Of a stretch of 64,000 bases of DNA, positions 249 through 61,791 are shown piece after piece (position 1 is the first letter of the stretch; the number at the start of each line of letters is the position of its first letter). This DNA is from Salibacteraceae bacterium (GTDB lineage Bacteria; Bacteroidota; Bacteroidia; Flavobacteriales_G; Salibacteraceae): positions 26,148 to 90,147 of the forward strand of contig CBFIEM010000011.1 of NCBI GenBank assembly GCA_965661625.1, in the 5' to 3' direction. The translations under genes were made by a program, and so were the position numbers. The notes under the pieces were generated by a model that saw nothing but the letters and a program-made list of their open reading frames with translations, did no database searches and was not told the DNA's origin.

Positions 249-768
249 TCGCTTAATTATCAGACCACTTCGCACAGATGATGCGGTGTTCTTTATAGAA
301 ACACGCAATCACCCAGAAGTAAAACCTTGGATAGGGTTTGTGCCCACTACAACAAAAGAAGTTCACGCCTTTCAAGCAGGAAATGAGCAACGGTTAAAAC
401 AATTGGATGCATGGTATCAATGCATCATTGAGCTAAAGCCTGCACGAGGTTTAATAGGTGATATTGCCCTTCACTTCCTTCCGAATAATGAGGTAGAAAT
501 TGGGTATGTAATGCATCCCCAATTTACTGGCAAGGGATATATGAAAGAGGCATTACATGCCATAACCAAGTATGCTTTTGAGCACCTCGGTATTGCCCGT
601 AGTTTGTGCAATGTAGATCCTATAAACAAGGCCAGTATTGGAGTTTTAAAAGGCGTTGGATACAAGCATGTTGAAACTGTGCGAGGAGCATTCTTGTTTC
701 GGGAAAAATATGTTGACAACAGCACCTATTCAATTCGACCAGAAGAGATTACTCCTTACCGCGGTTAA
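232..768 (+). CDS. GNAT family N-acetyltransferase (RimJ/RimL-like)
   Basis: 178-aa ORF. 'NRLIIRPLRTDD', 'IGYVMHPQFTGKGYMKEAL' and 'DPINKASIGVLKGVGY' fit the GNAT acetyl-CoA binding fold. Confidence 0.8.
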   Translation: MQVTTNRLIIRPLRTDDAVFFIETRNHPEVKPWIGFVPTTTKEVHAFQAGNEQRLKQLDAWYQCIIELKPARGLIGDIALHFLPNNEVEIGYVMHPQFTGKGYMKEALHAITKYAFEHLGIARSLCNVDPINKASIGVLKGVGYKHVETVRGAFLFREKYVDNSTYSIRPEEITPYRG

Positions 769-1834
769 TCCAATTGTAAATGGTTTTGATCAATTGCTCA
801 GGTTCAAATGGCTTGAGAATGAATCCATTCATTCCGCAAGCTTGAATATCGTCTTTCACTTCCATAAATACAGAAGCTGACAGCGCTAATATCGGAGTTT
901 CCGTATTGAATTTACGTATTTCCCTACTCGCTTCATACCCATCTACAACTGGCATCTGAATATCCATCAAAATGAGATCGTAGGTATGCTTTTTAACCAG
1001 GTCTATGGCCTCCTGTCCATCAACCGCGACTGAAACGTTGAGGCTCGCATCTTCCAAAATCTGTTTTCCAACCATTACATTAATGGCATTATCCTCCACA
1101 AGAAGCACGTGTTCGTGGTTGAAATCGAAGCGTTCTCCAATGTCTTCAAACTTTTTATCCTCGTCCTGAACAACAGGAAACTCAGCCTCAAAAGAAAAAG
1201 TACTCCCTTTTCCTGCCTCACTTTCTACACGAATAGTACTCCCCATAGATTCAACAATTTTCTTAACAATAGGCAAGCCCAAACCAGTACCTCCATATAA
1301 CCTCGTAGTTGAGACCTCCGCCTGTGTAAAGGCCTGAAAAATGCGCTCTTGTTGTTCTTTTGAAATTCCTATACCCGAATCCTTAACCTTAGTTAAAAGC
1401 TTGACATACTTATCATTAGAGCTAACCACCTCAATTGTTAGCTTAACCTGTCCGTTATCTGTAAATTTAATGGCATTAGAAATTAAATTATTGATCACTT
1501 GATTAAACCTTACGATATCCACCCATAAATCAGGTAGATCTGCTGAAATATCAATATCAAATGAAACACCCTTTTTGATGCACGAGGGCTCATGAACTTT
1601 TCGAATTTGGCTAATTGCATATTTCAGATCAGCAGGAATTGGATCGAGGTCCACTTCTTCATGCTCCATTTTACTATAATCCAAGACTTGATTCAGTAAA
1701 TTCAGCAACAACTTTCCCGAATAATTTAACGCTTCGATATTTTCCACTTGATCTTCTCGCGGTTCTTTTTCACGCAGGATATGGGATAATCCAATCACCG
1801 CATTTAGCGGGGTTCTAATTTCATGGCTCATCAT
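749..1834 (-). CDS. hybrid sensor histidine kinase/response regulator: kinase core plus receiver (downstream part of a gene interrupted by in-frame TAA 1868-1870)
   Basis: H-box 'MSHEIRTPLNAVIG', ATPase boxes 'NLISNAIKFT', 'DSGIGI', 'GGTGLGL', then receiver 'VLLVEDNAINV...ILMDIQMPVVDG...LKPF'. The frame continues upstream through 11 sense codons (GLSNAKSKFLS) to the TAA. Confidence 0.85.
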   Translation of the reverse strand: MMSHEIRTPLNAVIGLSHILREKEPREDQVENIEALNYSGKLLLNLLNQVLDYSKMEHEEVDLDPIPADLKYAISQIRKVHEPSCIKKGVSFDIDISADLPDLWVDIVRFNQVINNLISNAIKFTDNGQVKLTIEVVSSNDKYVKLLTKVKDSGIGISKEQQERIFQAFTQAEVSTTRLYGGTGLGLPIVKKIVESMGSTIRVESEAGKGSTFSFEAEFPVVQDEDKKFEDIGERFDFNHEHVLLVEDNAINVMVGKQILEDASLNVSVAVDGQEAIDLVKKHTYDLILMDIQMPVVDGYEASREIRKFNTETPILALSASVFMEVKDDIQACGMNGFILKPFEPEQLIKTIYNWINRGKE

Positions 1835-1867
1835 AGATAAGAACTTAGATTTCGCATTGGATAAACC

Positions 1868-2440
1868 TTATGCTTCCTCCCGCTTATTGTGCAAGTTCGT
1901 ATAGTAACGCATATTCAGAAAAGAGAAATAGGTGATTTGAAACGTGACCAATATGAACGTACTAACTACCGAAAATGGGTAAATGACAGATGCTGCCAAT
2001 TGCTGATCCATAGGTGATTGCCGGAATAAGGTAAAATCTGTAAAAAACAATCCAATCCACATAAAAATGGACAACAATGAAAACATGATAATAAATACCT
2101 TTTCCCGTCTAAATGAAAATAGTAAAAACGGAAGGCCAAGCGCAAACATGAGCACATATTCAACACTACCTGCTTTGCCCAAATAAGACGCAGTTATCCC
2201 TACACTAAAAATTAAGGTTAGCATATACGTGATGCGCGAAAAGAGCAAGATTCTTTTAACTGTAAGAAAAAGGCAAAAAAGAAAAATCAGTGTAGTTCCA
2301 CCGATAAAATAAGACAACGTATAAAGTTCTAGACTGCGCGATAGAAAAAACCAAACAGCAGATAAGATACCGGTAAATGCTGCAACCGCTATGGAAAGTT
2401 GGTACCTCCGCTCACTGTGCAACTTCTCTTCATTCTCCAT
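1868..2440 (-). CDS. polytopic membrane sensor module, upstream part of the interrupted hybrid kinase
   Basis: 190-aa very hydrophobic ORF with about six predicted TM segments. It ends REEA-TAA in the same frame as the kinase core. The intact paralog at 40520-43096 has the same layout. Confidence 0.6.
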   Translation of the reverse strand: MENEEKLHSERRYQLSIAVAAFTGILSAVWFFLSRSLELYTLSYFIGGTTLIFLFCLFLTVKRILLFSRITYMLTLIFSVGITASYLGKAGSVEYVLMFALGLPFLLFSFRREKVFIIMFSLLSIFMWIGLFFTDFTLFRQSPMDQQLAASVIYPFSVVSTFILVTFQITYFSFLNMRYYTNLHNKREEA

Positions 2441-2494
2441 TTAAATACAAGCTATAAAATTACTACCTACGTTAAATATGCTGTGGTTGATAAA

Positions 2495-3022
2495 CTAATT
2501 CAGCAAGCCAATATGCTCATCATAAACCATTTTTCGTTCTTCAAATGAAGAAGAATCAAAATCAAATACTTCACACTGATTGATTGGTTTTACATACAAA
2601 TGAAGAGTCATTGCGCGGTCTCCACATTTATTACGCAACATATGATACCCACTCTCTTTGCTCATGAAGGTTAAATCGCCTGGTTTTAAAACAGCTCTAG
2701 ATTCGGGACAAGGAGCTGATTCAGAGCATGAATAAAGCACCTCTTCAACATCGCCAAGCACCTGTTTTACCCAACACTGTTGACCATCGTGACCATGTAT
2801 TGGTGTTTCAGAATTAGGCTCCCAACAAAGCAAAAGCAATTCAAATTTGCTTGTGCGTTCCAAGCATATCCTCGTATAACTTTCTTCCTCCCACTGACCG
2901 TATTTCATTAACCAATCAGGATTAATATCAGTTGATTTTAATATTTGGTTGTAAACGGACGGTGCTGCATTGTTAAGCTGTTTAATCAGCTTTAAAACAG
3001 GGTCTTCATCTTTTGGAAGCAT
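2495..3022 (-). CDS. cdo: cysteine dioxygenase type I (cupin)
   Basis: 175 aa, aligned by eye with mammalian CDO1. Shared elements: 'YTR' (Tyr58/Arg60), 'LLCW', 'IHGH' (His86/His88), Cys seven residues after the first His (Cys93 position), 'YHMLRN' (His140), 'LHLY' (Tyr157). Confidence 0.8.
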   Translation of the reverse strand: MLPKDEDPVLKLIKQLNNAAPSVYNQILKSTDINPDWLMKYGQWEEESYTRICLERTSKFELLLLCWEPNSETPIHGHDGQQCWVKQVLGDVEEVLYSCSESAPCPESRAVLKPGDLTFMSKESGYHMLRNKCGDRAMTLHLYVKPINQCEVFDFDSSSFEERKMVYDEHIGLLN

Positions 3023-3137
3023 ATTCTGTTAACTTTGTTTCTGATTGGTTTTTGTTTAAAATTGATTCAATTTTGAACGTTTTCATCACAATATTTCCAA
3101 AATTTACTCTTTTTAATCGATTTCAATAAAAAATAGC

Positions 3138-4523
3138 ATGGCTGAATTTCTTTCTCAATTTGAAAAAATAGCAAGCGCATTATTAGAAGCAGAGCAAAAA
3201 ACTCCCACAGCCACGCAAATTCCTTCAACGAAACTTTTTGATAAGCTCGATTTATCCTTAACTGAGCAAGGCGTTGACCGTAAAGACATGTACAAAAGTT
3301 TGGAAGAACTAGCGCTTCAGACCCCACGCACAGCATCCCGTACATTTTTTAATCAACTTTTTGGTGGGCGAAATACCGATGCAGTTCTCGGAGAACTTTT
3401 AGCCGTGTTGCTAAATACCAGTATGTATACCTACAAAGCAGCCGGAGCAATGATTGGTGTCGAAAAAGAAATTTTAAATCAAGTGTGTAACTTGGTTGGT
3501 TGGGGGCCAAAATCAGGAGGAACAATGCCACCTGGAGGATCCATGGCCAATTTCATGGCTCTTTTAATGGCAAGAGATGCATATGACCCTACCACTCCTG
3601 ATCAAGGAGTAAGCAAATCATTTACAGTGTATACTTCTGATGAATCCCATTATTCAACGGTTAAGAATGCCGCTTTTGCAGGGATTGGAAAAGAGCAAGT
3701 TCGAAAAATCCGCACTCAACATACGGGTCAAATGGATATGGAGGAACTCGCCGAAGTAATGACTCAAGATATAAATGATGGCTTTACTCCAATGCTCATT
3801 AACTTAACTGCGGGAACAACTGTTCTTGGAGCGTTTGACCCGATAAGACCAGCTGTGGAAATCGCTAAACAGTTTAATTGTTGGGTACATGTTGATGGAG
3901 CATATTGTGGGGCTGTGTTATTGAGTGATAAATACCAGCACTTGATTGATGGAATTGAACTTGTTGATTCGTTCAGTTTTAATGCTCATAAAATGCTGAG
4001 TACACCACTCTCCTGCTCTATCCTGGTTGCTAAGGATGAAGAGTACCTGAATAAATCGTTCTCAAAAGAAGCTGCATACCTTTACCAAACTGATGACGAT
4101 GGGTTTAATCCTGGGAAAACTTCATTGCAATGCGGTAGAAGAAACGACGCACTCAAATTGTGGGCACTTTGGAAGCATGTTGGTACGCGTGGACTAGCGA
4201 AGATTGTAAATCATCAGTTTGACCTTGCAGAATACGCTAGAACGTACATCCGGGGAAATGCTGATTACACCCTTTACAGTTTTGATGAATCCGTTTCAAT
4301 ATGCTTCAACTATAAAAATATTGACCCAGTAGCGTTGTGCACCCGTCTTTACGAAAAGAATGAATTAATGGTGGGTTACGGTTCGTCTCATGGAAAAACA
4401 TTCATTCGACTAATTACAGTCAATGCTCAAAACTCAACCCAAGAGATTGATTGGTTTTTTCAACGCTTAGAACGCTTTGTTGAGCAGCATGAGGCTGATT
4501 TAGTTTCATTTGTAAACGACTAA
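3138..4523 (+). CDS. PLP-dependent group II decarboxylase, cysteine sulfinate decarboxylase-like
   Basis: 461 aa. 'FFNQLFGG', 'LNTSMYTYK' and the PLP-lysine motif 'SFNAHKML' are typical of the GAD/CSAD family. Confidence 0.8.
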   Translation: MAEFLSQFEKIASALLEAEQKTPTATQIPSTKLFDKLDLSLTEQGVDRKDMYKSLEELALQTPRTASRTFFNQLFGGRNTDAVLGELLAVLLNTSMYTYKAAGAMIGVEKEILNQVCNLVGWGPKSGGTMPPGGSMANFMALLMARDAYDPTTPDQGVSKSFTVYTSDESHYSTVKNAAFAGIGKEQVRKIRTQHTGQMDMEELAEVMTQDINDGFTPMLINLTAGTTVLGAFDPIRPAVEIAKQFNCWVHVDGAYCGAVLLSDKYQHLIDGIELVDSFSFNAHKMLSTPLSCSILVAKDEEYLNKSFSKEAAYLYQTDDDGFNPGKTSLQCGRRNDALKLWALWKHVGTRGLAKIVNHQFDLAEYARTYIRGNADYTLYSFDESVSICFNYKNIDPVALCTRLYEKNELMVGYGSSHGKTFIRLITVNAQNSTQEIDWFFQRLERFVEQHEADLVSFVND

Positions 4524-4528
4524 TTTTT

Positions 4529-6025
4529 ATGGTTGCCAAGGTTATTGCTTTAGCTTTATACGTCTTAATTCTTCTATTGATAGGGGTTGTTGCGAGCAGG
4601 CGTGTTAAAAACATCAGTGACTTTTACGTTGGTGGAAAAAAAATAGGCTATTGGGCCGTTGCCTTCTCTGCCAGAGCTACAGGTGAATCTGGATGGATAT
4701 TGATTGGCCTTACAGGTATGGGAGCCTTGGCTGGTTATTCTGCTTATTGGGTAGTTGTTGGTGAAGTTGTAGGTGTTGCCATATCTTGGATGTTCATGGC
4801 CAAGCGCTTTAAACGGTTATCAGACAGTTACCAATCATTGACAATCCCCGACTTTTTGGAGTCTCACTTTAAAACTACAACACATAGACTGCGCGCTGTA
4901 TCAGCAGCAATATTGAGTGTCTTTGTGGTAATCTACGTAAGTACACAAATCGATGCCACTGGAATTGCTTTTGAGTCTATGCTCGGCATGAACTACTACA
5001 CAGGAGCATTAGTGGGATTCCTAATTGTTCTTACATACATTTTCATTGGAGGGTTTTTAGCGGTTGTGTGGTCAGACTTGTTTCAAGGTTTTTTAATGTT
5101 CTTAGGCCTGGTTGTTCTTCCTGTTTGGGCATACATTCAAATGGATGTAGATTCCATTTCTGCGAGCTTGTCTGCCATTGACCCGCAGTTAACTTCCATT
5201 TGGGGAATTCATGATGACCCTTGGTTAAACGTAGCATCGCTATTGGGATTTTCTATGATCGGACTTGGGTTTCTTGGCTCTCCTCAAGTATATGTGCGGT
5301 TTATGTCGATTAAAAATGAGGCCGAAATTGTAAAGGGAAAATGGGTTGCTATTTTTTTCACTGCAATTACTGATACTGCAGCTGTAAGTATTGGCGTGCT
5401 AGCCCGGGTTTTCTTCACCGATATCGGCGCTGATCCAGAGACTACTTTGGGAGTTGGGGGAGCTGATGTTTTAAACTTAATGGTGGAAGAGTTTCTACCC
5501 CTAGGAATAGCTGCAATTTACATTGCAATTGTTTTGTCAGCTATTATGTCCACCATTGACTCCTTGCTAGTTGTTGCATCTAGTGCAGTAACAAGAGACT
5601 TTTACCAAAAGATTTTTCATCCGGAAATTCCAGATGATAAGCTCACGCGTATATCGAGGTTTACAACCTTAACTATGGCCATTTTAGCTCTTATAATTGC
5701 TCTGATCATGGCTTGGGTCTCCCCAGATAGACAGGTTTTTTGGGTTATTATTTTTGGTTGGTCAGGTATAGCAGCTAGTTTCTGTCCGGTAATAATCCTC
5801 TCTTTATTTTGGAAGAATTATACGGCGAATGGTGCCTTGGCATCAATGATTACGGGATTTTTATGCGTTCCTTTTTTCAAATTTGTAATCGAACCACTTC
5901 CAACCATTGGGTTATATTTCCAGCAGCTTGATGTCCTAGCACCTTCTTTCGTCATTTCTATCGTTTCAGGAATACTCGTTTCTAAATATGCAAAAGCGAC
6001 TCAAAAGCCTGTTGATGTAACATAA
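4529..6025 (+). CDS. sodium:solute symporter (SSS family, PutP/PanF-like)
   Basis: 498 aa with many hydrophobic segments. N-terminal 'GGKKIGYWAVAFSARATGESGW' is SSS-like. Starts 5 nt after the decarboxylase stop. Confidence 0.8.
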   Translation: MVAKVIALALYVLILLLIGVVASRRVKNISDFYVGGKKIGYWAVAFSARATGESGWILIGLTGMGALAGYSAYWVVVGEVVGVAISWMFMAKRFKRLSDSYQSLTIPDFLESHFKTTTHRLRAVSAAILSVFVVIYVSTQIDATGIAFESMLGMNYYTGALVGFLIVLTYIFIGGFLAVVWSDLFQGFLMFLGLVVLPVWAYIQMDVDSISASLSAIDPQLTSIWGIHDDPWLNVASLLGFSMIGLGFLGSPQVYVRFMSIKNEAEIVKGKWVAIFFTAITDTAAVSIGVLARVFFTDIGADPETTLGVGGADVLNLMVEEFLPLGIAAIYIAIVLSAIMSTIDSLLVVASSAVTRDFYQKIFHPEIPDDKLTRISRFTTLTMAILALIIALIMAWVSPDRQVFWVIIFGWSGIAASFCPVIILSLFWKNYTANGALASMITGFLCVPFFKFVIEPLPTIGLYFQQLDVLAPSFVISIVSGILVSKYAKATQKPVDVT

Positions 6026-6253
6026 ATAACTATTTATTAAAAGGGTTGCAACGACTGAAAAGCTACGTGGCCACACCATTTATGTTGAAGACAAATTTTC
6101 CATAATTACCGATAAATACCATTAAAAGAATCAAACCAACCGGAGCTTTAACCATTGTCGTATTGAGCTATAGACACTTCGGAGAAATTATAGAACTGAA
6201 TCCGAATGAGGCAATTTTGGCCGAATCGTATTCGATAAAAACTAAATGGAAAT

Positions 6254-6285
6254 AAAAAAGGCACTCATTTGAGTGCCTTTTTTTA
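6254..6285. terminator. bidirectional rho-independent terminator
   Basis: A-run, stem GGCACTC / GAGTGCC (loop ATTT), then T-run. Lies just downstream of the minus-strand DUF2911 gene stop. Confidence 0.7.
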
Positions 6286-7029
6286 TTCACGAATAAGTTT
6301 CAAGTATTTCTCAGAATTCTCTTTTACATTCGGTTGAGGACTTAAGCTCAGCGCCATCTTAAACGCCTCCTCAGCTTCATCAAACTGTTTTAACTTGAAA
6401 AGTGCTTCTCCGAGTGAGTCAAAAGCATTAGCACTTTTGGGATACTTCGCAACGTTCGCTTCGAATACATCCAGAGCCCCTTTCACGTACCCTTCATTCA
6501 TCAATTGATAACCATATTGATTCATTTGTACTTCAGAGGCCTCTTTTAATGCGTCTTCCATTACAGCCTTAGCCTCTTCCAATTTTCCAACCTTTCTTAA
6601 AATTGCTGCATTCACATTCCTTGTGATGAAATTCGGATTAATCTTCAAAGCCTGTTTACTCCATGCTAAAGCCGTTTCCATGTGAATATTATGTTGGCTT
6701 AAATAAACAGCTCCACTATTATAACCTTGCCATGAAAAACCTGTAGGACCCGTTAGTTCAACGCGTGCATTTTCAAAAACCAATTCAGGAACATCAAAAG
6801 CGACGGGCACTATAAACCGTTTGAGCTCCCAGTCTAAAACTAAATTGACTGAAGTAGGTTTAACATCTACAAACTGATAAGTTAACCGTTCTGTGTGTTC
6901 ATGGTTAATCACTTCCACTTGTGCTCGAAGGATATCATTTTCTGGGTTATAAAAATAAGAGCCCCATGCTTCATTGTCAGCTGATAAAATCACTTCACCT
7001 GAACCGTCTTTGTTTATGGTAAAGAACAA
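6283..7029 (-). CDS. DUF2911-family protein, C-terminal part with TPR repeats (downstream of in-frame TAA 7099-7101)
   Basis: Frame is continuous upstream (NTTLSITHKAKIAGKEVAAGKYG) to the TAA. The C-terminal half has TPR-like repeats ('ALKINPNF', 'AKYPKSANAFDSLGEALFKL'). Confidence 0.7.
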   Translation of the reverse strand: MFFTINKDGSGEVILSADNEAWGSYFYNPENDILRAQVEVINHEHTERLTYQFVDVKPTSVNLVLDWELKRFIVPVAFDVPELVFENARVELTGPTGFSWQGYNSGAVYLSQHNIHMETALAWSKQALKINPNFITRNVNAAILRKVGKLEEAKAVMEDALKEASEVQMNQYGYQLMNEGYVKGALDVFEANVAKYPKSANAFDSLGEALFKLKQFDEAEEAFKMALSLSPQPNVKENSEKYLKLIRE

Positions 7030-7098
7030 ACCGTACTTACCTGCAGCAACCTCCTTACCAGCAATTTTGGCTTTATGAGTTATTGAGAGTGTCGTATT

Positions 7099-7359
7099 TT
7101 AATTTGCTCCCGCTCGCCATGGTGCTTCGTTTCCACTCCCAAAATTAAAGGTGTTCCATCCAAAGGGTACAAGTTCACCCCAAATATTTCGTCCCCTTAC
7201 TGCTGGTCGCGAATAATTCACCTCTATATCAGAAATTCCTATGATTTGGGAGACAGAAGCCGCTGGACTTGCAGTTCTTGGTGTAGTAATAGCCTGCCCA
7301 TAAAGTAAAGTTGTCAATGCAACTAAACTAGCCGTTGTCATTAAGCCTATTTGATTCAT
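7099..7359 (-). CDS. DUF2911-family protein, N-terminal part with signal peptide
   Basis: Signal peptide 'MNQIGLMTTASLVALTTLLYGQA', then 'EVNYSRPAVRGRNIWGELVPFG...APWRAGAN', which matches the conserved DUF2911 N-terminal block as I remember it. Confidence 0.7.
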   Translation of the reverse strand: MNQIGLMTTASLVALTTLLYGQAITTPRTASPAASVSQIIGISDIEVNYSRPAVRGRNIWGELVPFGWNTFNFGSGNEAPWRAGAN

Positions 7360-7742: not shown

Positions 7743-7765
7743 AATTTATACTTTTTTTTTGAAGA

Positions 7766-19922: not shown

Positions 19923-20327
19923 TCAACCGTATATTGCATATAGCAAGTCGTTCAAACTATCTTGAGAAAATGGTTTGGTAACATAGCCTTTCACTATGCT
20001 GTAGTCTTTTGACTTCTCCTTATCATCAAAGTCATCTGAACTTGAAACCATGGTGATTTTCAACTGATTGTGACCCTCAGTTTTTATTATTTCATCAAGA
20101 AACTCCCACCCGGACCAAATTGGCATGTTAATGTCCAATAGGATAAGTTGTGGAAGCTGACTTCCTCCATTTATCAGCACGTCATTAATTGCTTCATAAG
20201 CTTCTTTGCCATCTTTATATACAACCAATTCAATTGGTGTTTCAGAGTCTCGATTTGCCAACAACCGCTTGACCAAAAAAATGTGAATCGGATCATCATC
20301 TACAACACACAGTTTTTTACTTTCCAT
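19923..20327 (-). CDS. single-domain response regulator (CheY-like receiver)
   Basis: 'CVVDDDPIH', 'ILLDINMP' and 'KP' receiver motifs. Its start overlaps the upstream kinase stop by 11 nt. Confidence 0.85.
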   Translation of the reverse strand: MESKKLCVVDDDPIHIFLVKRLLANRDSETPIELVVYKDGKEAYEAINDVLINGGSQLPQLILLDINMPIWSGWEFLDEIIKTEGHNQLKITMVSSSDDFDDKEKSKDYSIVKGYVTKPFSQDSLNDLLYAIYG

Positions 20328-21930: not shown

Positions 21931-21963
21931 TCCTTTTGTGGAATGGTTGACGTAAAATTGACG

Positions 21964-23763: not shown

Positions 23764-23980
23764 GGGGAAGAGGTTTCTATTAAAACAATACAGAGCTAAG
23801 TTAAACCATATTGACTAATAAAAGGAACAACTAAAAACATGGAAGTGCGTGGATTCAAGCTCCATTATCTAATAACCGACCTCGGTCACCAATTGAATGA
23901 ACAATTTTGTCAAGTTTTCAACAGACTTAGAGCGGGCGTTAAGCAAAAAATTATTTTCGTCTCATAAAATATTCCTTTCC

Positions 23981-26187: not shown

Positions 26188-26191
26188 CAAC

Positions 26192-44495: not shown

Positions 44496-44967
44496 ATGCC
44501 TCTACATATTACGTCACGCAAAATCGGATTGGTCCAATGACTGTTCTGATTTTAATCGTCCTATTAACAAGCGAGGTCATGATGCCGCTGATCGTATGTC
44601 CAAGTTTATGGTGGAAAAATTCATTACTCCAGAGGTTATATATGCCAGTAGCAGTGTTCGTACTTCTGAAACAGCAGCTTATTTTCAGAATCAATTCAAT
44701 GTAGCAGTCACATCAGATCAAGGACTTTATTTGGCGAGTGCGAATCGAATAGATACCCTTGTGAAATCTTTCTCCGATCGTTTAAACTATGCAATGATTA
44801 TTGCACACAATCCTGGTATTCATGATTTTGTAGAGCAATTGGGCAATACGAATTTAGAAAAATACCCTACCTGCACCCTCTCTGTATTAGAAACTGATTC
44901 AGACTCATGGAGTCAAGCAAGTCATTTTACTCTAAAGGAATTCATATCTCCAAAAGTTATCCCCTAA
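44488..44967 (+). CDS. sixA: SixA-like phosphohistidine phosphatase (histidine phosphatase superfamily)
   Basis: 'LYILRHAKSDW' (RHA catalytic motif) and 'IIAHNPG'. About 159 aa from ATG 44488. 8-nt overlap with the M28 gene end. Confidence 0.7.
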   Translation: MNKCLYILRHAKSDWSNDCSDFNRPINKRGHDAADRMSKFMVEKFITPEVIYASSSVRTSETAAYFQNQFNVAVTSDQGLYLASANRIDTLVKSFSDRLNYAMIIAHNPGIHDFVEQLGNTNLEKYPTCTLSVLETDSDSWSQASHFTLKEFISPKVIP

Positions 44968-46471
44968 GTGGGACGTAATGCTTTGCCAACTCTTCTTGAA
45001 ATTTTTCCGGATCTATTGGTTTTGTAAGGTACCCATTCATCCCAAATTCAAATACTTTATCCCTAGTTTCTTTAAATGCGTCAGCGGTTAAAGCAATTAT
45101 AGGCACCTGCATAATATGCTCAACATCATGACTCCGTATGGCTTTTGTCGCCTCGAACCCATCCATTACAGGCATGTTTAAATCCATCAACACCAAGTCA
45201 ATGGCATCGTCTGATTCCAATACATCAAGCCCTAGTTTCCCATTGAGAGCCATAACAACTTGAATTTCCTCTCGCTCAAGAAACATAATAGCAATTTTCT
45301 GGTTTACAAGATTATCCTCAACCAGCAATTCCCGCATTCCTTTCAAGCTATCTGCTTGTAATTGGGCTTCTTCAAAGTCTTCAACAGGTTCAAATGGAAT
45401 TTCAATAGAAAAAGTGCTCCCCTCTCCTATTTTGCTTTCAATACTTATAGACCCACCGTGCAATTCAACAAGTGATTTTGTAATTGCTAAACCTAACCCT
45501 GTACCTCCAAATTCATTTAGAATTGATTTTTCGGCTTGAGAAAAGCTTTGGAAAATCATTGCTTGTCGATCTTTCGAAATTCCTATTCCTGTATCGGAAA
45601 TTTCAAATTTCAAGACTGCTGCACGCTTTAGCATTCCATCCAGTTTTACAGCAAGTGAAACTGATCCCTTTTCTGTGAATTTGATGGCATTTCCAACAAC
45701 ATTCGTTAAAATTTGGTTCAATATAACTTGATCACCTTTAAGGAATTGAGGAACATTTTCATCTATGTTAAAGCTGAAATCTAAATTCTTTTCGCTAGCC
45801 TTAATCTTGAAAATGCGGATGACATTGTCTACAATTTTATTCAATTCAAACTTACCCTCATCAAGTTCAATTGTCCCTGATTCAATCTTAGATAAATCTA
45901 GGATATCATTCACTAAATTCAACAAGTTGTTAGCAGACATTTTGAGCGTATTCAAATCTTCTAGTTGATCACTCCTTGGATCGCGATCAATCAAAAGGTG
46001 CGCATATCCAATAACTGCATTTAGCGGGGTTCTAATTTCGTGACTCATCGATGATAGGAACTGTTGTTTGGATTCCGCAAGTTCCTCTGCTCTGCGCTTA
46101 GCCTCTATCAACGTTTTTTCTACCTGTTTTCTTTCCGTCAAATCATGCCACACAGCAAGAAGGTAAGGCTCACCGTTTAATGTTATAGGCTTCAAGGCAA
46201 CATCCATAGGAATAATTTTACCCGAAGTTGATTGATGGCTCCATTCAAACCGATGCCCTCCCTCCTCTTCAGCAATTTTCTTCATTGCTTGTGACTTATC
46301 CAATGAAAGCCAATTATCACCCTGGTATTCAGGCGAAAATTCAGATGGTACTTTTCCCAACAAATCATCCTTAGAATTCACCTCCAATACTTCCAGGGTA
46401 GCTGAGTTACAATCTACAATACCATCGTCATTAAAAATTATATGCGGATCAGATGCAAATTCGAACAGCAT
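44957..46471 (-). CDS. hybrid sensor histidine kinase/response regulator, C-terminal part (downstream of in-frame TGA 46568-46570)
   Basis: PAS, 'MSHEIRTPLNAVIG', 'GGTGLGL' and receiver 'LLVEDNLVNQ...VLMDLNMPVMDG'. The frame is continuous for 32 sense codons upstream to the TGA. Confidence 0.85.
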   Translation of the reverse strand: MLFEFASDPHIIFNDDGIVDCNSATLEVLEVNSKDDLLGKVPSEFSPEYQGDNWLSLDKSQAMKKIAEEEGGHRFEWSHQSTSGKIIPMDVALKPITLNGEPYLLAVWHDLTERKQVEKTLIEAKRRAEELAESKQQFLSSMSHEIRTPLNAVIGYAHLLIDRDPRSDQLEDLNTLKMSANNLLNLVNDILDLSKIESGTIELDEGKFELNKIVDNVIRIFKIKASEKNLDFSFNIDENVPQFLKGDQVILNQILTNVVGNAIKFTEKGSVSLAVKLDGMLKRAAVLKFEISDTGIGISKDRQAMIFQSFSQAEKSILNEFGGTGLGLAITKSLVELHGGSISIESKIGEGSTFSIEIPFEPVEDFEEAQLQADSLKGMRELLVEDNLVNQKIAIMFLEREEIQVVMALNGKLGLDVLESDDAIDLVLMDLNMPVMDGFEATKAIRSHDVEHIMQVPIIALTADAFKETRDKVFEFGMNGYLTKPIDPEKFQEELAKHYVPLRG

Positions 46472-46567
46472 CCGGAATTTCTCCTCAGATCTAAAGCGTT
46501 CTGTAACATCTTTTGCGATACCAATAATACTGTTTACCCCATTTTCGTGATAAACCGCTTTCTCCTT

Positions 46568-47809
46568 TCACTCTAAAATAATAGCCTCACCATTCCTACG
46601 AATAACTTCAGTGTAGAAGGTTTCTGTTTTGCTTGTTCCTTGAAGAATCTTCTTGGTTGCTTCTCGAGCGAGGTCGTTTAATGGGTTTTCAGTTAATACT
46701 TTAAGTCTTCCGCCGAGCAATTCATCTGGTGCATATCCCAGCACCCTTGATACGTTTTCCGAAATGTAATCATAGGTAAAATCAACTCCATGACGGTAAG
46801 TAAAATCATCTGAATTTTCCAACAATAGCTGCTGTTGCCTTACTAATTCAGCAAGTTCCATTTTACTTTTGCTTAGCGCTCGTTCGCTTCTATTTGTTCT
46901 CCTAAAGCTATAAGCAAAAAGTACGGTCAAAATTGCCACGGATATCGCTGTAAATAGGAAAATCATTACGCCATTTGAAACTGCTCGATTTAAAATTGGA
47001 GCTGTGTCTTGAATTAATACTATACCGTAGTTAGCATCAAATAGGTTGATGGGGGTGTATGCAATAATAGCCTCTTTACTTCCGGTTGATTGCATAACCT
47101 CAGCCGTTAAGCTACCTCCCAAGTTCGCGGTCAATGCTTCACTTATTGCTAATGAGTCTTTCTGCTTAAAGTGTACATAATTTCCTATGACATGCTCATT
47201 TGTGCCACCCTTTAAGAGTGGTACTAATCCATACCCCTCTCGGTAGAGCAATGGAAACGACCCTTTCTGATCCAGGTATAAGTCCGCCATTTCTCTGAAA
47301 TATGCCGATACCTCAATAAACCCTACAAGTTCTATGTTATGATTTTCATAATTCCGCGACAATTCAACAATACTGTGAAATGGCGATTCAATTAATTTCG
47401 TGGACCTGTTTAGCTTTTGCTCAAAGTTAAAGTGGTAATAGTTATTATGGTCACGAGAGGCGGTTAACTGACTTCGGTTAAAACTAATGGAAACAGAATC
47501 CAACAATTCCAAATTGCTTCTCAGTACATGGCCAATTAAATTGCGATCTGCTGGGGTTACTTCATTCCGACTAAAAATACTATCAATTCCAATTATTTTC
47601 GGAAGAAGTGCCAAATCAGATAAAAGTTCAAATTGTTTCTGACTGACTTCAGCTTCAAATGATGAAACTCTAGCCTCTAAACTGAACTTCCCATCATCCA
47701 CTTCTCCATTAATCCAAACGTTAAAAAAGTAAACATTGAAAACCAAAATGAACAAAATGGCCGCTCCGCCTAAAAAATATATGGGATATAAACCTTTTAA
47801 ACGCATCAA
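46568..47809 (-). CDS. membrane sensor module (TM, about 250-aa extracytoplasmic domain, TM, PAS start), N-terminal part of the interrupted kinase
   Basis: TM segments 'LYPIYFLGGAAILFILVFNVYFF' and 'GVMIFLFTAISVAILTVLFAYSF', then a PAS domain truncated at 'GEAIILE'-TGA. Confidence 0.7.
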   Translation of the reverse strand: MMRLKGLYPIYFLGGAAILFILVFNVYFFNVWINGEVDDGKFSLEARVSSFEAEVSQKQFELLSDLALLPKIIGIDSIFSRNEVTPADRNLIGHVLRSNLELLDSVSISFNRSQLTASRDHNNYYHFNFEQKLNRSTKLIESPFHSIVELSRNYENHNIELVGFIEVSAYFREMADLYLDQKGSFPLLYREGYGLVPLLKGGTNEHVIGNYVHFKQKDSLAISEALTANLGGSLTAEVMQSTGSKEAIIAYTPINLFDANYGIVLIQDTAPILNRAVSNGVMIFLFTAISVAILTVLFAYSFRRTNRSERALSKSKMELAELVRQQQLLLENSDDFTYRHGVDFTYDYISENVSRVLGYAPDELLGGRLKVLTENPLNDLAREATKKILQGTSKTETFYTEVIRRNGEAIILE

Positions 47810-47985
47810 TCCAATTCCTTAAGTAACATTAAGTGCCACGTTGTATTCCTTATAGGTACATGAATAACTGCTACTTCCTTTTTACCAGTAGAATAAAAAG
47901 CCGTCTCATGTTTACCTTCAAGCATTTTAGCTGCCATCTGTCGAATACCTTTATTTTTAGAACGATAGAGATTGAAATCATCCAT
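47806..47985 (-). CDS. 59-codon ORF, probably the C-terminal end of the upstream Cache-like protein (below the track length cut-off)
   Basis: 'MDDFNLYRSKNKG...VAVIHVPIRNTTWHLMLLKELD'. In frame with ORF 47998-48825 across one TAA. Its TGA overlaps the next gene's ATG (TGATG). Confidence 0.5.
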   Translation of the reverse strand: MDDFNLYRSKNKGIRQMAAKMLEGKHETAFYSTGKKEVAVIHVPIRNTTWHLMLLKELD

Positions 47986-47997
47986 GAGTAAGCTATT

Positions 47998-48825
47998 TTA
48001 ATTTATCAAATCCGTATAATAATTATTATCGAATGACGGTAGCCCAACTTGCTGCAGTGCAATATCTGAACCTGCTATATAAGCTCCCGAGTCATCTACA
48101 AGCAATAGTGATTCGTTTTCCTCTAAATAGCTTTTTAAAATGCCATCTAACGTAATATCTACACCTACAACCCCCTTTAGATCATCACCTTTATACACCG
48201 GAGCAACAATACTTATCATCCAGCCTCTTCCCGCAGGATCTAAATAAGGTCTATCAATAACTACCACTGACCTTTCAGCATTATGTTTGGCGTTTGCCTC
48301 ATAATAAAAATTGAAGGTTGTAATATCTAATCCCGGCGGGTACTGGGTTTCAACGTCAATTTTTGGGTAAATTAAATTCATACAAAATTCAGAATTGAAA
48401 TAGGCTTGAGAGATACTCGATTTATGCTTTACACTTTCAATCAGAGCAAGTCCAGTACTTTGAGCTAATATCGCTTCACGTATAACTCCTGTATCAATTG
48501 GAGCATACCCACTGATATAAAGAGACCAGGGGTAGTTAGCTGAATTTTCGTAAAGCATGACACCGTCTTTATTAGTGCGGAAATCGCTCGAGTCCAAAAC
48601 CACAGATTTTGAACTTTCGTAAGCTTTTGAAAAAACGCTCCTAAGCTTTTCCACCTGAGTAGATATTTCACTAAACTCCGATTCAATATTAACTGCAATT
48701 GATTCTAGATAATTCACTTCATCATCATAACTTTCTCCTTGATTTTTACAACTCAAACAAAGTGAAACAACTAGGGTAAGCAAAATGATTAATGCGCTTT
48801 TACTTATTTGTAAGCAACTTTTCAT
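47998..48825 (-). CDS. lipoprotein with double-Cache-like extracytoplasmic sensing domain (ends at in-frame TAA)
   Basis: Lipobox-like 'LVVSLCLSCK'. 'YPPGLDITTFNFYYEA', 'RPYLDPAGRGWMISIVAPVY' and 'GVVGVDITLDGI' are typical Cache-domain strings. Confidence 0.6.
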   Translation of the reverse strand: MKSCLQISKSALIILLTLVVSLCLSCKNQGESYDDEVNYLESIAVNIESEFSEISTQVEKLRSVFSKAYESSKSVVLDSSDFRTNKDGVMLYENSANYPWSLYISGYAPIDTGVIREAILAQSTGLALIESVKHKSSISQAYFNSEFCMNLIYPKIDVETQYPPGLDITTFNFYYEANAKHNAERSVVVIDRPYLDPAGRGWMISIVAPVYKGDDLKGVVGVDITLDGILKSYLEENESLLLVDDSGAYIAGSDIALQQVGLPSFDNNYYTDLIN

Positions 48826-48843: not shown

Positions 48844-49969
48844 ATGAAAAAGATAGGATTTACAGTTTTTTTTAGGCGTTTGTTTTTTTAACATTTCTAT
48901 TGGCCAAGTCAAAGATTCAGCCAAGATTAGAGCCTACGCTCCAATCATTACGCTCCCGCACACTGCGATAAAGAATCAAGCTAAAACTGGCACTTGTTGG
49001 TCATTTTCATCAATCTCATTTTTGGAATCTGAAATTATCAGAATGGGACATTCTCCTGTAAACTTGAGTGAGATGTTCTTTGTCCATCACAATTACCTGA
49101 ATAAAGCAACCAACTTTATTCATATGCATGGAAAAGCAAACTTCGGTCAAGGAAGCCTAAATCACGATGTCTTGAACATCTGGAAAGCGCATGGCGTTGT
49201 TCCTGAAGAAATTTACAGCGGAAATGCCTCAGATGGGAACTATGATCACAGTGCTCTTTATAAAACGTTGAGGTCTAATTTGGAGTTATCCTTAAAGCTT
49301 AAAAATGATGGCGGAATAACATACTGGCGCGGCATACAGCAAGGAATTCTGAATCTTTTTATGGGAGAGTTGCCTAAATCTTTTGAATTTGAAGGAGCCT
49401 CCTTTACACCACAATCCTATGCAAAAGACCTTCCTATTTCACCTAGAGATTATGTTGAATTAACATCATTTACCCACTTACCAATGCAAGAATGGGTAAC
49501 ATTGGATATTCCTGACAATTGGTCAAATGCTAAGTATTTAAACTTACCTATTGCTGAACTTTATCAGACGGTTGTTAAAGCACTGGAAAAAGGGTATTCG
49601 GTAGCGTGGGATGCCGACGTAAGTGAATTGTATTGGTCGCGAGAGTTAAATATAGCTTTTGTACCAATCTCCAAAGACCTTGAAGCTGTTAAACATCCCG
49701 ACTCGCTCCTGATTAACGGTAAATTCAATGAGGCCAAGATCTCTCAACAAATAAGACAGGAGCAATTTGAGGAACTGAACACCACTGACGACCACCTTAT
49801 GCATATCATAGGAATGAGTAAAGATCAATATGGTCAAACCTACTTTAAAGTGAAGAATTCTTGGGGGAAAAATCATACAGGTGCTGGTTACTATTATGTA
49901 ACACCGGCATACTTCAAACTAAAAACAGTATCAGTTATGCTTCACCGCGACGTCAGCCCAACATATTAG
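48844..49969 (+). pseudogene. C1 (papain/aminopeptidase C-like) cysteine peptidase, frameshifted in a T8 run
   Basis: ATG 48844 gives MKKIGFTVFF, then a stop after the T8 run at 48866-48873. The next frame reads '...LGVCFFNISIGQVKD...NQAKTGTCWSFSS' (active-site Cys) and continues into track ORF 49022-49969. Confidence 0.75.
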
Positions 49970-54212: not shown

Positions 54213-54227
54213 TTACGACTAAAAGCT

Positions 54228-54911: not shown

Positions 54912-54951
54912 AGACAAAATTATCCTACGAGTTCCTTAAATTGCATGTGTG

Positions 54952-55539
54952 ATGCGTATTTTAATTTTGATTTTACTGCTCCCGCAATTGGCACTTTGTC
55001 AACTCAATGTTTTAAACGTTGTCAGTCAAGTAAATGAATCTCAGGTTGCAATAACGTTCACCTTAGCACCTGGCAACTTCTGTCAAGGCGCTATCCTGAA
55101 ACGTGGTTTTGATCCAAGTAGACCTGATCTATTTGAGCAAGTAGGTGAAATCACTGGAGTATGCGGCGATCAAGATTTTGCTGCAACATATACCTTACAT
55201 GACTTTAGACCATTCGAGAATCAGCTTACTTATTACCAGCTATTTCTGGGAAGTGAACCCATGGAGTTACTTCCTGTTTTGGTAGAAAATTTCGGAGCGA
55301 AAGGATTCCGCATATATCCTAATCCTGCTTCAACGGAAACCAAAATCTATTTTGAAGAGACCCTTGTTGATCCTGTTACAATCCATGTATACAACATGCG
55401 TGGCACACTCGTTTTTGAACAAGTTCAAATCAGGTCACAGACTTTCGAACTGCCAAGGAATAACCTAGAGCCAGGCGTATACTCCCTTCACATTTTGCAT
55501 AATGGGAGCTATTATGAGGAGCGTTTGGTATTTAATTAG
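54952..55539 (+). CDS. small secreted protein with T9SS C-terminal sorting domain
   Basis: Signal peptide 'MRILILILLLPQLALCQ'. C-terminal 'RIYPNPASTETKIYF...GVYSLHILHNG' is CTD-like. Confidence 0.6.
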   Translation: MRILILILLLPQLALCQLNVLNVVSQVNESQVAITFTLAPGNFCQGAILKRGFDPSRPDLFEQVGEITGVCGDQDFAATYTLHDFRPFENQLTYYQLFLGSEPMELLPVLVENFGAKGFRIYPNPASTETKIYFEETLVDPVTIHVYNMRGTLVFEQVQIRSQTFELPRNNLEPGVYSLHILHNGSYYEERLVFN

Positions 55540-55931
55540 AGTTTGTCATCCCTCCTACGTTTCTTTTTCTCTCCATGCTCCTTTTTAGATTTAATTCGCT
55601 TTATTCGCGAAGAGCGGGTTGGCACAGATTTCTTACGAGTTTTTGGCTTTTCTATTCCAGTAATGATGAGTTTTTCTAATGCTGAAGCCGCTTTAGCCTT
55701 ATTTTGAAATTGAGATCGCTCGTTGTCAATTGAAACTTGTAATACCCCATCAGAAGATATGCGAGACTTAAAAACTTTACATAGTCGATTCTTTTCTTCC
55801 GAGGTTAAAAAATTACTATTTACAACATCAAAAAAAGCTGTTACACGAGATTCTGTTTTATTAGCGTGCTGACCTCCCGGCCCTTGGCTTCTGCTCGTTT
55901 TATACCAAAACTCAGTTCTTATAGCATGCAT
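55536..55931 (-). CDS. arfB: alternative ribosome-rescue factor ArfB (peptidyl-tRNA hydrolase, YaeJ-like)
   Basis: 'GPGGQHANKTESRV' (GGQ motif) and a Lys/Arg-rich C-terminal tail. 131 aa. Confidence 0.9.
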   Translation of the reverse strand: MHAIRTEFWYKTSRSQGPGGQHANKTESRVTAFFDVVNSNFLTSEEKNRLCKVFKSRISSDGVLQVSIDNERSQFQNKAKAASALEKLIITGIEKPKTRKKSVPTRSSRIKRIKSKKEHGEKKKRRRDDKL

Positions 55932-55933
55932 GT

Positions 55934-58390: not shown

Positions 58391-58505
58391 TTCACCAAAA
58401 CTACATCAAGCTGCAGGATTGCGCGTACGTGAATTAAGATTTCAATGTTCATATTCTTCGGTTTTAGGTTGTTGAAGCTGGGTAAAACGAGTATACATTA
58501 GCATT

Positions 58506-60386: not shown

Positions 60387-60415
60387 AAAAAGCACGCTTG
60401 AATCAAGCGTGCTTT
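60385..60415. terminator. bidirectional rho-independent terminator
   Basis: A-run, stem AGCACGCTTG / CAAGCGTGCT with loop AAT, then TT. Confidence 0.75.
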
Positions 60416-60435
60416 ACAGTCTCACCAATTTAACC

Positions 60436-61029
60436 CTAATAAATCGCAGAGCTATTTCTGTAGCCACTATTGTTTTGAAACCAATCGGGAAAGCTTATTC
60501 CGTTGCTTGTCGCCCAATCATCAAAAAAGTTATACGCCGATGTGATTTCGATTTTTTCTTTCGGATAATCAAAACTTTCGGAAATATGTATGCCCCATGG
60601 CAAGTTTGAAGCTGTTTTGTAATATTTACCTGTACTTGGATTCGAATCATCAGCCTCAGTTCCAAATACCGTTAAATCTGCCAAATCAGTGGGTGAATAA
60701 TCAGGTAAATGAATTTCATTTCCCCGTATTCCATTTTTAACTAGAAACGGATTGAAATCATCAATGTTCAACTGCGTACTTGTTACTGAAGAAGGGTCAA
60801 ATGACAAGGTTACGGTCACGGTTACCGGAGATACATTTGCTCCTGCTGGGTCAGTGTTCACACCTATTCCAGATCCTGGATAGGGTAGAATATTATACGC
60901 ATCATCAAAAACGAAAAATACTGCATTTGTTTGTCCCTGCTCAAGTCCATTAGCGGCAATCGAAATATAAGCTTCTTGCAAATCAGAGCCTGAAACACCA
61001 CTTATGTTAGAAGGTGATACAGAAGGCAA
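60436..61029 (-). CDS. LruC domain protein, C-terminal part (downstream of in-frame TGA 61060-61062)
   Basis: The frame continues upstream (AGFHNGFGVE) to the TGA. 'FNPFLV', 'NEIHLPDY' and 'LPWGIHISESFDYPKEK' are LruC-domain strings as I remember them. Confidence 0.7.
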   Translation of the reverse strand: MPSVSPSNISGVSGSDLQEAYISIAANGLEQGQTNAVFFVFDDAYNILPYPGSGIGVNTDPAGANVSPVTVTVTLSFDPSSVTSTQLNIDDFNPFLVKNGIRGNEIHLPDYSPTDLADLTVFGTEADDSNPSTGKYYKTASNLPWGIHISESFDYPKEKIEITSAYNFFDDWATSNGISFPDWFQNNSGYRNSSAIY

Positions 61030-61059
61030 CTCTACTCCAAACCCGTTATGAAAACCAGC

Positions 61060-61791
61060 TCAAAAAGCACGCACAGTGAAAGAAGCAAACAATTCAACAA
61101 CATAATCACTTGCGTCAGTAACTGTTTGAAATGAATAATCCACTACTAAATCATTAAAATCATAGTCTCCTTGAGAAGGCCACAAATCTTCAAAAGCGAG
61201 CGTTGCCGTTCCAGATGCCGGAAAATAACTGTCAAATGCTCGTGTACCATCATTCGGATAATCATCATTTGCATCTGAAATCCCATCGCCATCTGTATCT
61301 GGAGCACAATTAAGAACAGCATTAAAATCTGCTACAGAAAATGTTACGATCAACTGAGAGTTACCTGCTTTTATCAAAAACTGTTGACTTTGAAGCGCTG
61401 ATATGGTGTAGTTAAGTTCGAATGAACCAGCCAACCCTGCACCCATTCCTGAGGTGCTAGATAGCCTGAATCCATTAAAAGGATCTCCACCTAAATTCCA
61501 CCCCATATCAACTCCGCCGTAATTAAACGACCCTACAATATTACTAACTGATATGTTACTATATGAAGATTGTGCGGCTTCGACAGAATAATGAGAAACA
61601 GACTTACATCCTGGTCCAGGACATCCATCGTGTTCCACCAGAACCTGTATTTCATAATTGTTATTTACGAGGGTAACATTGGTAAGGGTAGTTGTATAAC
61701 CTTGGCCATGGTTTTTAGTTATATCACATTGACTAAAAACAGTTCCTCCAAGAATAATTGACATTAAAATTGTCGTAATTAGATGTCTCAT
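61060..61791 (-). CDS. LruC domain protein, N-terminal part with signal peptide
   Basis: Signal peptide. 'DTDGDGISDANDDYPND' is calcium-binding-like. 'LAFEDLWPSQGDYDFNDLVVDY' marks the start of the LruC domain. Confidence 0.7.
   Translation of the reverse strand: MRHLITTILMSIILGGTVFSQCDITKNHGQGYTTTLTNVTLVNNNYEIQVLVEHDGCPGPGCKSVSHYSVEAAQSSYSNISVSNIVGSFNYGGVDMGWNLGGDPFNGFRLSSTSGMGAGLAGSFELNYTISALQSQQFLIKAGNSQLIVTFSVADFNAVLNCAPDTDGDGISDANDDYPNDGTRAFDSYFPASGTATLAFEDLWPSQGDYDFNDLVVDYSFQTVTDASDYVVELFASFTVRAF

Follow-up and report, generated by a model that had tools for sequence, protein, structure and literature searches.

Six genes on the minus strand of the window, i.e. the whole stretch of 64,000 nucleotides analysed here, each carry one in-frame stop codon, with the reading frame continuing unchanged beyond every stop. 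We consider it reasonably probable that these stops are genuine, having arisen very recently by nonsense mutation of dispensable genes in an uncultivated, Crocinitomicaceae-like Flavobacteriales bacterium, whose sequence was probably obtained by metagenome assembly.

Six minus-strand genes are interrupted by single stop codons

A first-pass annotation of the window had reported six in-frame stops, and re-reading the DNA returned the same coordinates, strand and unbroken downstream frame in all six cases. The affected genes, in which the stop is shown by an asterisk between its flanking residues, are as follows:

s1, 749-2440, minus strand: hybrid histidine kinase (563 codons) with a multi-pass membrane N-terminus and HisKA, HATPase_c and receiver domains (Pfam); TAA at 1868-1870, context A*G
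s2, 6283-7359, minus strand: DUF2911-TPR protein (358 codons); TAA at 7099-7101, inside DUF2911, in the motif WRAGAN*NTT
s3, 20317-23763, minus strand: multi-PAS histidine kinase (1148 codons); TAA at 21964-21966, inside a PAS domain, context S*R
s4, 44957-47809, minus strand: hybrid histidine kinase with PAS domains (950 codons); TGA at 46568-46570, inside a PAS domain, context E*K
s5, 47806-48825, minus strand: Cache-domain lipoprotein (339 codons); TAA at 47998-48000, inside dCache_1, context N*N
s6, 60436-61791, minus strand: LruC/DUF4842 surface protein (451 codons); TGA at 61060-61062, in RAF*AGFHNGFG

The conserved domain had been described as running across the stop in every gene. This is the case for five of them, in which Pfam places DUF2911, PAS_7, PAS_4, dCache_1 and DUF4842 across the interruption, whereas the stop in s1 lies five residues before HisKA. 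A mechanical six-frame scan of the window for single stops with at least 60 open codons on each flank recovered exactly these six interruptions. The remaining cases were normal gene ends after which the frame happened to stay open for some distance, and no plus-strand gene interrupted by a single stop was detected anywhere in the window. The ORF-free stretch at 62.2-64 kb proved to be an S46 peptidase gene that continues past the end of the window.

The stop-broken set thus comprises three sensor kinases, a Cache lipoprotein, a DUF2911-TPR protein and a LruC surface protein; together with one frameshifted gene, it brings the number of broken genes in the window to seven out of 52. As previously proposed, the housekeeping genes are untouched, with DnaK, PriA, a DEAD helicase, FabH, AroQ, PanB, RluA and both transketolase halves intact. 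The types of stop codon observed (four TAA, two TGA and no TAG) fit random mutation, for which single-base changes in these genes would be predicted to yield 45% TAA, 25% TGA and 30% TAG.

Relatives carry sense codons at the interrupted sites

Comparison of the joined genes with their homologs identified single, intact proteins for s1, s2, s4, s5 and s6, and the in-frame stops were absent from every relative examined, with a sense codon found at each of these five sites. A conserved two-gene architecture, the possibility that had been raised against the notion of interrupted genes, is therefore rejected, because the homologs of all five are unsplit.

All 83 full-length homologs of s6, which are single proteins of 440-500 aa, have Gly in the stop column, so the change was GGA to TGA, a G>T substitution on the coding strand. 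For s2, 30 full-length homologs, all intact and about 350-370 aa in length, have Glu (24), Gln (2), Asp (2), Leu (1) or Ala (1) in this column, and the predominance of Glu makes GAA to TAA the most likely change. Searches of the PDB with DUF2911 and LruC returned no alignment covering the stop sites. Among the matches listed in the protein search, s1 has two uninterrupted orthologs, P0133 (554 aa) and P0134 (556 aa). Opposite its stop, the closest ortholog (55% identity) has Glu (GAA), and two others have Leu (CTA or CTT). For s3, no ortholog was found among the matches listed, the two entries retrieved (P0131 and P0135) being fragments from this window itself; orthologs of s4 and s5 were likewise absent from that listing.

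For s4 and s5, the reference was L001, the closest genome among the matches listed in a scan with PanB, which is 84% identical in PanB and contains many N, and which resolves these two sites weakly. Both orthologs in L001 are uninterrupted. At the stop position, the one of s4 (49% identity) carries Val (GTG) and the one of s5 (32% identity) Gln (CAA); the latter is also found in the same gene order. When the s4 region was aligned locally with distant PAS domains (24 alignments), most residues in the stop column were V, I, L or T and none was Gly, and six tblastn alignments at the site agree with this pattern. The ancestral codon of s4 was therefore most likely TTA (Leu), converted to TGA by a T>G change. 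A metagenome scan with the PAS region of s4 yielded distant relatives only, and the contigs of closer relatives (L088-L091, 83-88% DNA identity) cover no lesion site.

A homopolymer frameshift in a peptidase gene

The seventh lesion, whose previous description was confirmed, lies on the opposite strand:

48844-49969, plus strand: C1-family cysteine peptidase; start codon ATG at 48844, reading frame shifted by +1 at a T8 run (48866-48873) in the signal-peptide region

With one T removed, the gene encodes 375 aa, and the product can be aligned with its L001 ortholog from Met1 onwards at 44% identity. The gene resembles known phase-variable homopolymer tracts of surface and secreted proteins in that the T8 run is located in the 5' coding region, within the signal peptide of a secreted protease, and at its present length places the gene out of frame. 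It differs from them in that the L001 ortholog has another N-terminal peptide sequence at the position of the tract, as seen in a comparison at the protein level.

Genuine mutation or consensus error

According to the reading we favour, six independent single-base substitutions would each have converted a sense codon of a dispensable gene into TAA or TGA, and a one-base slip in the T8 run would have broken the peptidase gene. Translation would terminate at each stop, so that each protein would break off within an essential domain or shortly ahead of it. Since these genes show no other decay, the events would be very recent, and the housekeeping genes may have been spared because selection removes such mutations there. 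Plausible ancestors lie one base away from the stop in s6 and s2, as well as in s1, given the GAA codon of its closest ortholog, and probably in s4.

The main alternative is that the lesions are errors introduced into a metagenome-assembled genome during sequencing, consensus calling or polishing. In that case, the bacterium itself would have sense codons at all or part of the six sites, and its peptidase gene would contain a T7 run. Although a real possibility, we regard this scenario as unlikely. The stops occur in the deposited NCBI assembly, in which the gene fragments appear as separate proteins on a 119,696-bp contig. Consistent with an artefact, the placement of the proteins on one NCBI contig is typical of an unannotated MAG, the density of lesions is high (seven of 52 genes), every broken gene is otherwise perfect and the seventh lesion belongs to a classic category of sequencing error, a change in homopolymer length. 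The 11-mer common to two of the stops is also what a miscall dependent on context would leave behind. On the other hand, positions 1459-2685 of the window, including the TAA of s1, are 100% identical over 1,227 bases to contig ERR15116650_140988 of a separate Logan assembly (run ERR15116650), whereas the other five stops are seen in the NCBI contig alone. This run was probably not the source of the assembly, because, of the 26 window proteins present in the protein collection, only one has a Logan copy.

Random errors would also be expected to strike housekeeping genes and to leave traces outside the stops. We counted private deviations at conserved alignment columns, leaving out each sequence in turn. 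The window sequences deviated at 4 of 319 columns in DnaK (the median for the other sequences being 3), 0 of 138 in PanB, 1 of 30 in RluA, 0 of 41 in DUF2911 and 1 of 70 in LruC, the last being typical of the family. Thus, there was no excess of odd substitutions at the conserved columns of these five proteins, whereas an error rate yielding six stops would add about five deviations across the DnaK, PanB, DUF2911 and LruC columns. The types of lesion also argue against errors, as six substitutions to one indel is atypical of long-read or 454 error profiles. All six stops lie outside homopolymers, two of them in one A/T-rich 11-mer, with the frameshift located in the T8 homopolymer. A deterministic k-mer miscall, finally, can be dismissed, because the precursor of the shared 11-mer, AAATGAAAATA, is kept intact twice on the plus strand. 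The window thus shares with MAG assembly and consensus errors its unannotated NCBI contig, the single homopolymer length change and the otherwise perfect genes, but it differs in the 6:1 ratio of substitutions to indels, the reproduction of one stop in a separate assembly and the lack of excess odd residues. Of the three options left open by the first-pass annotation (error, pseudogenisation and readthrough), readthrough can be set aside (see below), and real mutation, while not proven, is favoured over error because of the recurrence of the s1 stop, the lack of excess private substitutions and the predominance of substitutions over indels.

By extension, we infer that the other five stops are as real as the one in s1, that the encoded proteins are non-functional and that the clustering on the minus strand reflects chance together with the location of long accessory genes. 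Several points count against the interpretation as genuine mutations. A proportion of seven broken genes in 52 is high for a free-living bacterium, and six clean lesions in genes with no other damage would presuppose a recent mutational burst. In addition, the source is probably a metagenome assembly, support from a second dataset extends to only one of the six stops, and run ERR15116650 could share its platform and systematic errors with the assembly. Last, both the common 11-mer (P = 2.4e-4) and the restriction of the stops to one strand (P = 0.003 to 0.03) are left to chance.

Strand bias and a shared sequence context

The minus strand holds a share of 0.38-0.39 of the coding bases. The previously proposed probability of finding six of six stops on this strand by chance (0.38^6 = 0.003) is arithmetically correct but rises to 0.014-0.03 when the frameshift and the class of the genes are taken into account. 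The identical 11-nt context of the stops at 7099 and 47998, AAATTAAAATA, was also verified, and the P value given above for two stops sharing such a context was obtained by simulation. Together, the common 11-mer and the single strand hint at a non-random process.

One such process would be strand-asymmetric mutation, caused, for example, by damage to single-stranded DNA or by a replication-strand bias in a mutator lineage, that favours lesions in minus-strand genes. We consider it improbable. Apart from the six-of-six bias (P = 0.003), it could draw on the coding-strand G>T change in s6 and the probably identical one in s2, on the finding that 60% of the nonsense targets would fall into minus-strand genes under plus-strand C>A changes alone, and on the GC skew at 4-fold sites, which shows a real regional asymmetry. 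However, even complete asymmetry gives P = 0.046 for six of six. Furthermore, the lesions do not appear to be of one type, because the change in s4 was most likely T>G, and the mutational spectrum of the window lineage in the PanB-RluA region shows no excess of C>A (3 of 93) or G>T (2 of 93). A uniform origin by plus-strand C>A (coding-strand G>T) changes is therefore rejected, given the lack of Gly in the s4 column and this lineage spectrum. Mutagenesis by head-on replication-transcription conflicts does not fit either, because the 4-fold GC skew points to the minus strand as the probable leading strand. No mechanism for the strand bias was found, and one strand-specific type of mutation accounts neither for the bias nor for the 11-mer.

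Even more doubtful is a non-random process as yet undescribed in free-living Flavobacteriales, be it strand- and context-specific nonsense mutagenesis or a tolerance of stops based on a suppressor tRNA encoded elsewhere or on hopping at AAT-TAA-AAT. Its mutagenesis version would explain both the six stops on the G-rich, presumably leading strand and the common 11-mer A-AAT-TAA-AAT-A; in its tolerance version, the otherwise pristine genes would stay in use.

Stop-codon recoding as an improbable alternative

The least probable scenario, to which we attach very little weight, is that the stops are decoded or bypassed to make full-length proteins, be it through leaky termination, through +6 peptidyl-tRNA hopping at AAT-TAA-AAT or with the help of a suppressor tRNA whose gene lies in another part of the genome. 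It would agree with the perfectly kept frames beyond the stops and with the presence of the same Asn codon on either side of TAA in s2 and s5, as needed for stop-hopping between identical codons, which was reportedly observed in E. coli by Weiss and colleagues in 1987. However, TAA is the main terminator in the window, ending 33 of 51 genes (with TAG ending 11 and TGA 7), and four of the six in-frame stops are TAA, the least leaky stop codon. The window contains no suppressor tRNA, its sole tRNA being Ser-TGA, and the regions downstream of the six stops have no shared RNA structure, with a notable hairpin at s3 only. No SECIS-like structure was detected at any of the six sites, and selenocysteine is excluded by the Gly and Glu residues in the corresponding columns. 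Hopping is further disfavoured because the matching flanking codons (AAT TAA AAT) are limited to s2 and s5, the other four sites being unlike, and because the flanking Asn residues in DUF2911 are ancestral.

In-frame stops within otherwise intact frames are also a feature of known recoding systems, including selenocysteine insertion, suppressor tRNAs and the reassignment of TAG or TGA in some phages and bacteria. Here, by contrast, two different stop codons are involved, both of which also serve as normal terminators, no relative examined shares the stops, and neither a SECIS-like or shared structure nor a suppressor tRNA is present in the window. Stop-codon reassignment and programmed readthrough are thus rejected, since TAA, TAG and TGA all terminate normal genes and the residues lost to the stops are of ordinary kinds (Gly, Glu or hydrophobic). 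More generally, intact relatives, the normal use of terminators, the lack of a suppressor tRNA in the window and the lack of a shared structure speak against recoding and split genes alike.

Relation to known pseudogenes and significance

The genuine-mutation reading would place the interrupted genes close to the unitary pseudogenes of recently niche-restricted or bottlenecked bacterial lineages, with which they share single premature stops in conserved domains, intact orthologs, a preponderance of sensory and surface functions with housekeeping genes spared, and AT-rich stops, as expected at 39% GC. They differ in that the density of lesions is high (seven of 52) with no other genome decay in the window, that the window contains no IS elements or multiply hit genes, that all nonsense lesions lie on one strand and that a second assembly supports the reality at the DNA level of only one of the six stops. 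Literature searches on Crocinitomicaceae pseudogenes and on run ERR15116650 returned nothing useful.

As they stand, our results are mainly a matter of quality and annotation, with six gene pairs representing single disrupted genes. If the stops are real, they would signify the very recent loss of several sensor kinases and surface proteins in this lineage and would hint, in a small way, that selection has relaxed or shifted, for instance through a bottleneck or a narrower niche. The pattern would be of wider interest only if in-frame stops were confined to one strand or one sequence context throughout the genome.

The s5 gene is located directly upstream of s4 and apparently forms one operon with it. 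In favour of genuine mutation, both of these adjoining partners are broken, as expected after the loss of a pathway.

Single stop codons interrupt six minus-strand genes

Translation of the minus strand revealed one in-frame stop codon in each of six genes (s1-s6), with the same frame continuing onward at every site, just as the first-pass annotation had described.

Stop codons interrupting minus-strand genes (asterisk, stop within its flanking residues)
s1: 1868-1870, minus strand, TAA, A*G, hybrid kinase
s2: 7099-7101, minus strand, TAA, N*N, DUF2911-TPR protein
s3: 21964-21966, minus strand, TAA, S*R, multi-PAS kinase
s4: 46568-46570, minus strand, TGA, E*K, PAS hybrid kinase
s5: 47998-48000, minus strand, TAA, N*N, Cache lipoprotein
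s6: 61060-61062, minus strand, TGA, F*A, LruC/DUF4842 protein

The further claim that a conserved domain carries on across every stop held for five of the six genes (Pfam, stop masked) and failed for s1, whose stop lies 5 residues before HisKA. A scan of all six frames for single stops with at least 60 open codons on either side recovered s1-s6; the remaining cases were normal gene ends with a same-frame open stretch (e.g. PanB/RluA and sigma/anti-sigma), and no comparable interruption was found on the plus strand of the window at this threshold. The anticipated frameshift in a plus-strand C1 peptidase gene proved correct: downstream of its ATG at 48844, a T8 run (48866-48873) shifts the frame, and deletion of one T restores a 375-aa protein that is alignable from Met1 to its ortholog in L001, a locus of the Crocinitomicaceae MAG SAT99. 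The end of the window without apparent ORFs is taken up by an S46 peptidase gene extending past the edge.

Housekeeping genes, previously reported to be untouched, are indeed intact on both the minus strand (DnaK, PriA, a DEAD helicase, FabH and AroQ) and the plus strand (PanB, RluA and the transketolase halves). The transketolase (23897-27151, plus strand) is encoded as separate N- and C-terminal genes on either side of a 453-aa VWA-domain gene.

Taken together, the six stops are probably real nonsense mutations of very recent date in sensory and surface genes that the organism can dispense with, and the seventh lesion a frameshift in a homopolymer. The phenomenon belongs to a known kind, and its unusual features are limited to the density of the lesions, their strand clustering and a shared 11-mer.

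Relatives of five genes are intact and suggest the replaced codons

The alternative of conserved two-gene architectures did not hold, since the relatives of s1, s2, s4, s5 and s6 are intact and these homologs are thus not split at the sites in question; s3 had no ortholog among the matches listed. At the s6 site, Gly is present in 83 of 83 full-length LruC homologs (KAFGAxxxNGFG), so that the change was GGA>TGA. All 30 DUF2911-TPR homologs of s2 are intact, and the predominance of Glu in the respective column (Glu 24, Gln 2, Asp 2, Leu 1, Ala 1) makes GAA>TAA most likely. The s1 orthologs (554 and 556 aa) and one paralog are likewise intact, with Glu (GAA) in the closest intact sequence and Leu in the others. 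A JGI metagenome contig (L086, 21-4393) carries tandem paralogs of this kinase type, 556 aa and 563 aa long, which follow a third, incomplete copy, and the family has evidently undergone local duplication.

The uninterrupted L001 ortholog of s4 has Val at the site, and distant PAS domains (24 local alignments, with six further ones in agreement) mostly show V, I, L or T and never Gly, which points to TTA>TGA as the likeliest origin. For s5, the uninterrupted L001 ortholog has Gln (CAA) at the site, which at 32% identity is weak evidence. s5 ends at 47806-47808 and s4 starts at 47809 (47806-48825 and 44957-47809, respectively), and the same pair occurs in the same order in L001 (1403-5236); the pair resembles a conserved sensor operon, both members of which are broken in the window. 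By these comparisons, more than one type of substitution underlies the stops.

Among the matches listed, L001 is the closest genome (PanB 84%, DnaK 87% identity), but its 20,819 bases include 277 scattered N, so that its translated genes are full of X and have lower reference value. A congeneric population (83-88% DNA identity) is found in other metagenomes (SAMN07652563/SRR6043426, JGI 3300010389), and none of its contigs spans a lesion.

Consensus error is the less probable origin

Separate protein records from one NCBI contig (119,696 bp) correspond to the pieces of the broken genes, and the stops therefore belong to the deposited assembly, which is probably an unannotated metagenome-assembled genome. 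That consensus error made them is possible, if clearly less probable than mutation: lesion density is high, the broken genes are perfect apart from the lesion, and the frameshift lies in a homopolymer. However, positions 1459-2685, including the s1 TAA, match a 1,227-bp contig of run ERR15116650 from the separate Logan assembly at 100% identity, although a second run could carry the same systematic error if it came from the same platform. Of the 26 window proteins found in the collection, 1 has a Logan copy, indicating that this run contains the organism at low coverage; it probably did not supply the data for the NCBI assembly.

Six stops generated by random substitution in 7,633 minus-strand codons, with ~4.8% of random changes being nonsense, would imply ~126 substitutions, ~90 of them missense, and thus ~5 extra aberrant residues over 430 conserved columns. 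No aberrant residues above background were detected in the 430 columns tested, with private deviations at 4 of 319 in DnaK (median of 3 in the other 21 sequences), 0 of 41 in DUF2911 and 1 of 70 in LruC; plus-strand PanB had 0 of 138. Six substitutions to one indel is also not the proportion that long-read or pyrosequencing errors usually show. The s1 match in Logan, the lack of a private-residue excess and this ratio favour real mutations.

Strand bias and the shared 11-mer

The window contains 52 annotated genes (34 plus, 18 minus), and the minus-strand share of coding bases, previously put at about 38 percent, was recomputed as 0.38. On all coding bases, the earlier chance estimate of ~0.003 for six of six stood, whereas it rose to 0.0075-0.033 when gene class and/or the frameshift were considered.

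Probability of the strand bias (lesions; genes considered; minus-strand share; P)
Six of six nonsense; all coding; 0.38; 0.003
Six of seven, with frameshift; all coding; 0.38; 0.014
Six of six nonsense; sensor, surface, secreted or unknown; 0.44; 0.0075
Six of seven, with frameshift; sensor, surface, secreted or unknown; 0.44; 0.033

In our view the bias was noticed post hoc in a small sample, and a strand-asymmetric mutational process is unlikely. Even an exclusive plus-strand C>A process would have 60% of its nonsense targets in minus-strand genes (six of six, P = 0.046), the s4 mutation type does not match it, and neither C>A nor G>T is in excess among the PanB-RluA substitutions polarised to the window lineage (3 and 2 of 93). 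Measured on the coding strand at 4-fold sites (1-64000), GC skew is -0.18 for plus-strand genes and +0.13 for minus-strand ones, which makes the minus strand G-rich and presumably leading, yet 62% of coding bases lie on the plus strand. With this orientation, the pattern is not accounted for by head-on conflict between replication and transcription.

As first noted, an identical 11-mer, A-AAT-TAA-AAT-A (AAATTAAAATA; Asn-stop-Asn), surrounds the stops at 7099 and 47998. When six random nonsense-target sites were drawn from the genes of the window, two shared ±4 nt in 2.4e-4 of trials. A deterministic miscall is ruled out because the precursor, AAATGAAAATA, is retained at two plus-strand positions. 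In s2, the Asn residues flanking the stop are ancestral. A third copy of the 11-mer (54957-54967, minus-strand orientation) falls within the part of a plus-strand Por-secretion-tail gene that encodes the signal-peptide region and reads Ile-Leu-Ile; the related contig L090 is too divergent there to show its origin.

Decoding or bypass of the stops is improbable

That the stops are decoded or bypassed is highly improbable, and recoding is rejected: TAA and TGA also end normal genes (TAA 33, TAG 11, TGA 7), so that the standard code applies, the replaced residues are ordinary (Gly, Glu or hydrophobic), and the in-frame stops are conserved in none of the relatives. The arrangement at the two AAT-TAA-AAT sites is the one needed for +6 stop-hopping, but it is absent from the other four. 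The window encodes a single tRNA, Ser-TGA. The regions downstream of the six stops have no RNA structure in common; s3 alone (21894-21966, minus strand) shows a notable 9-bp hairpin, ~18 nt past the TAA (-15.6 kcal/mol, z = -3.1).

An intact 131-aa RF-1-domain protein adjoining priA (55536-55931, minus strand) resembles ribosome-rescue peptidyl-tRNA hydrolases of the ArfB/YaeJ type, and nothing connects it with the stops. Beside s1, genes for a cysteine dioxygenase, a PLP-dependent decarboxylase and a sodium:solute symporter are grouped at 2495-6025 and may form a hypotaurine/taurine-type cluster.
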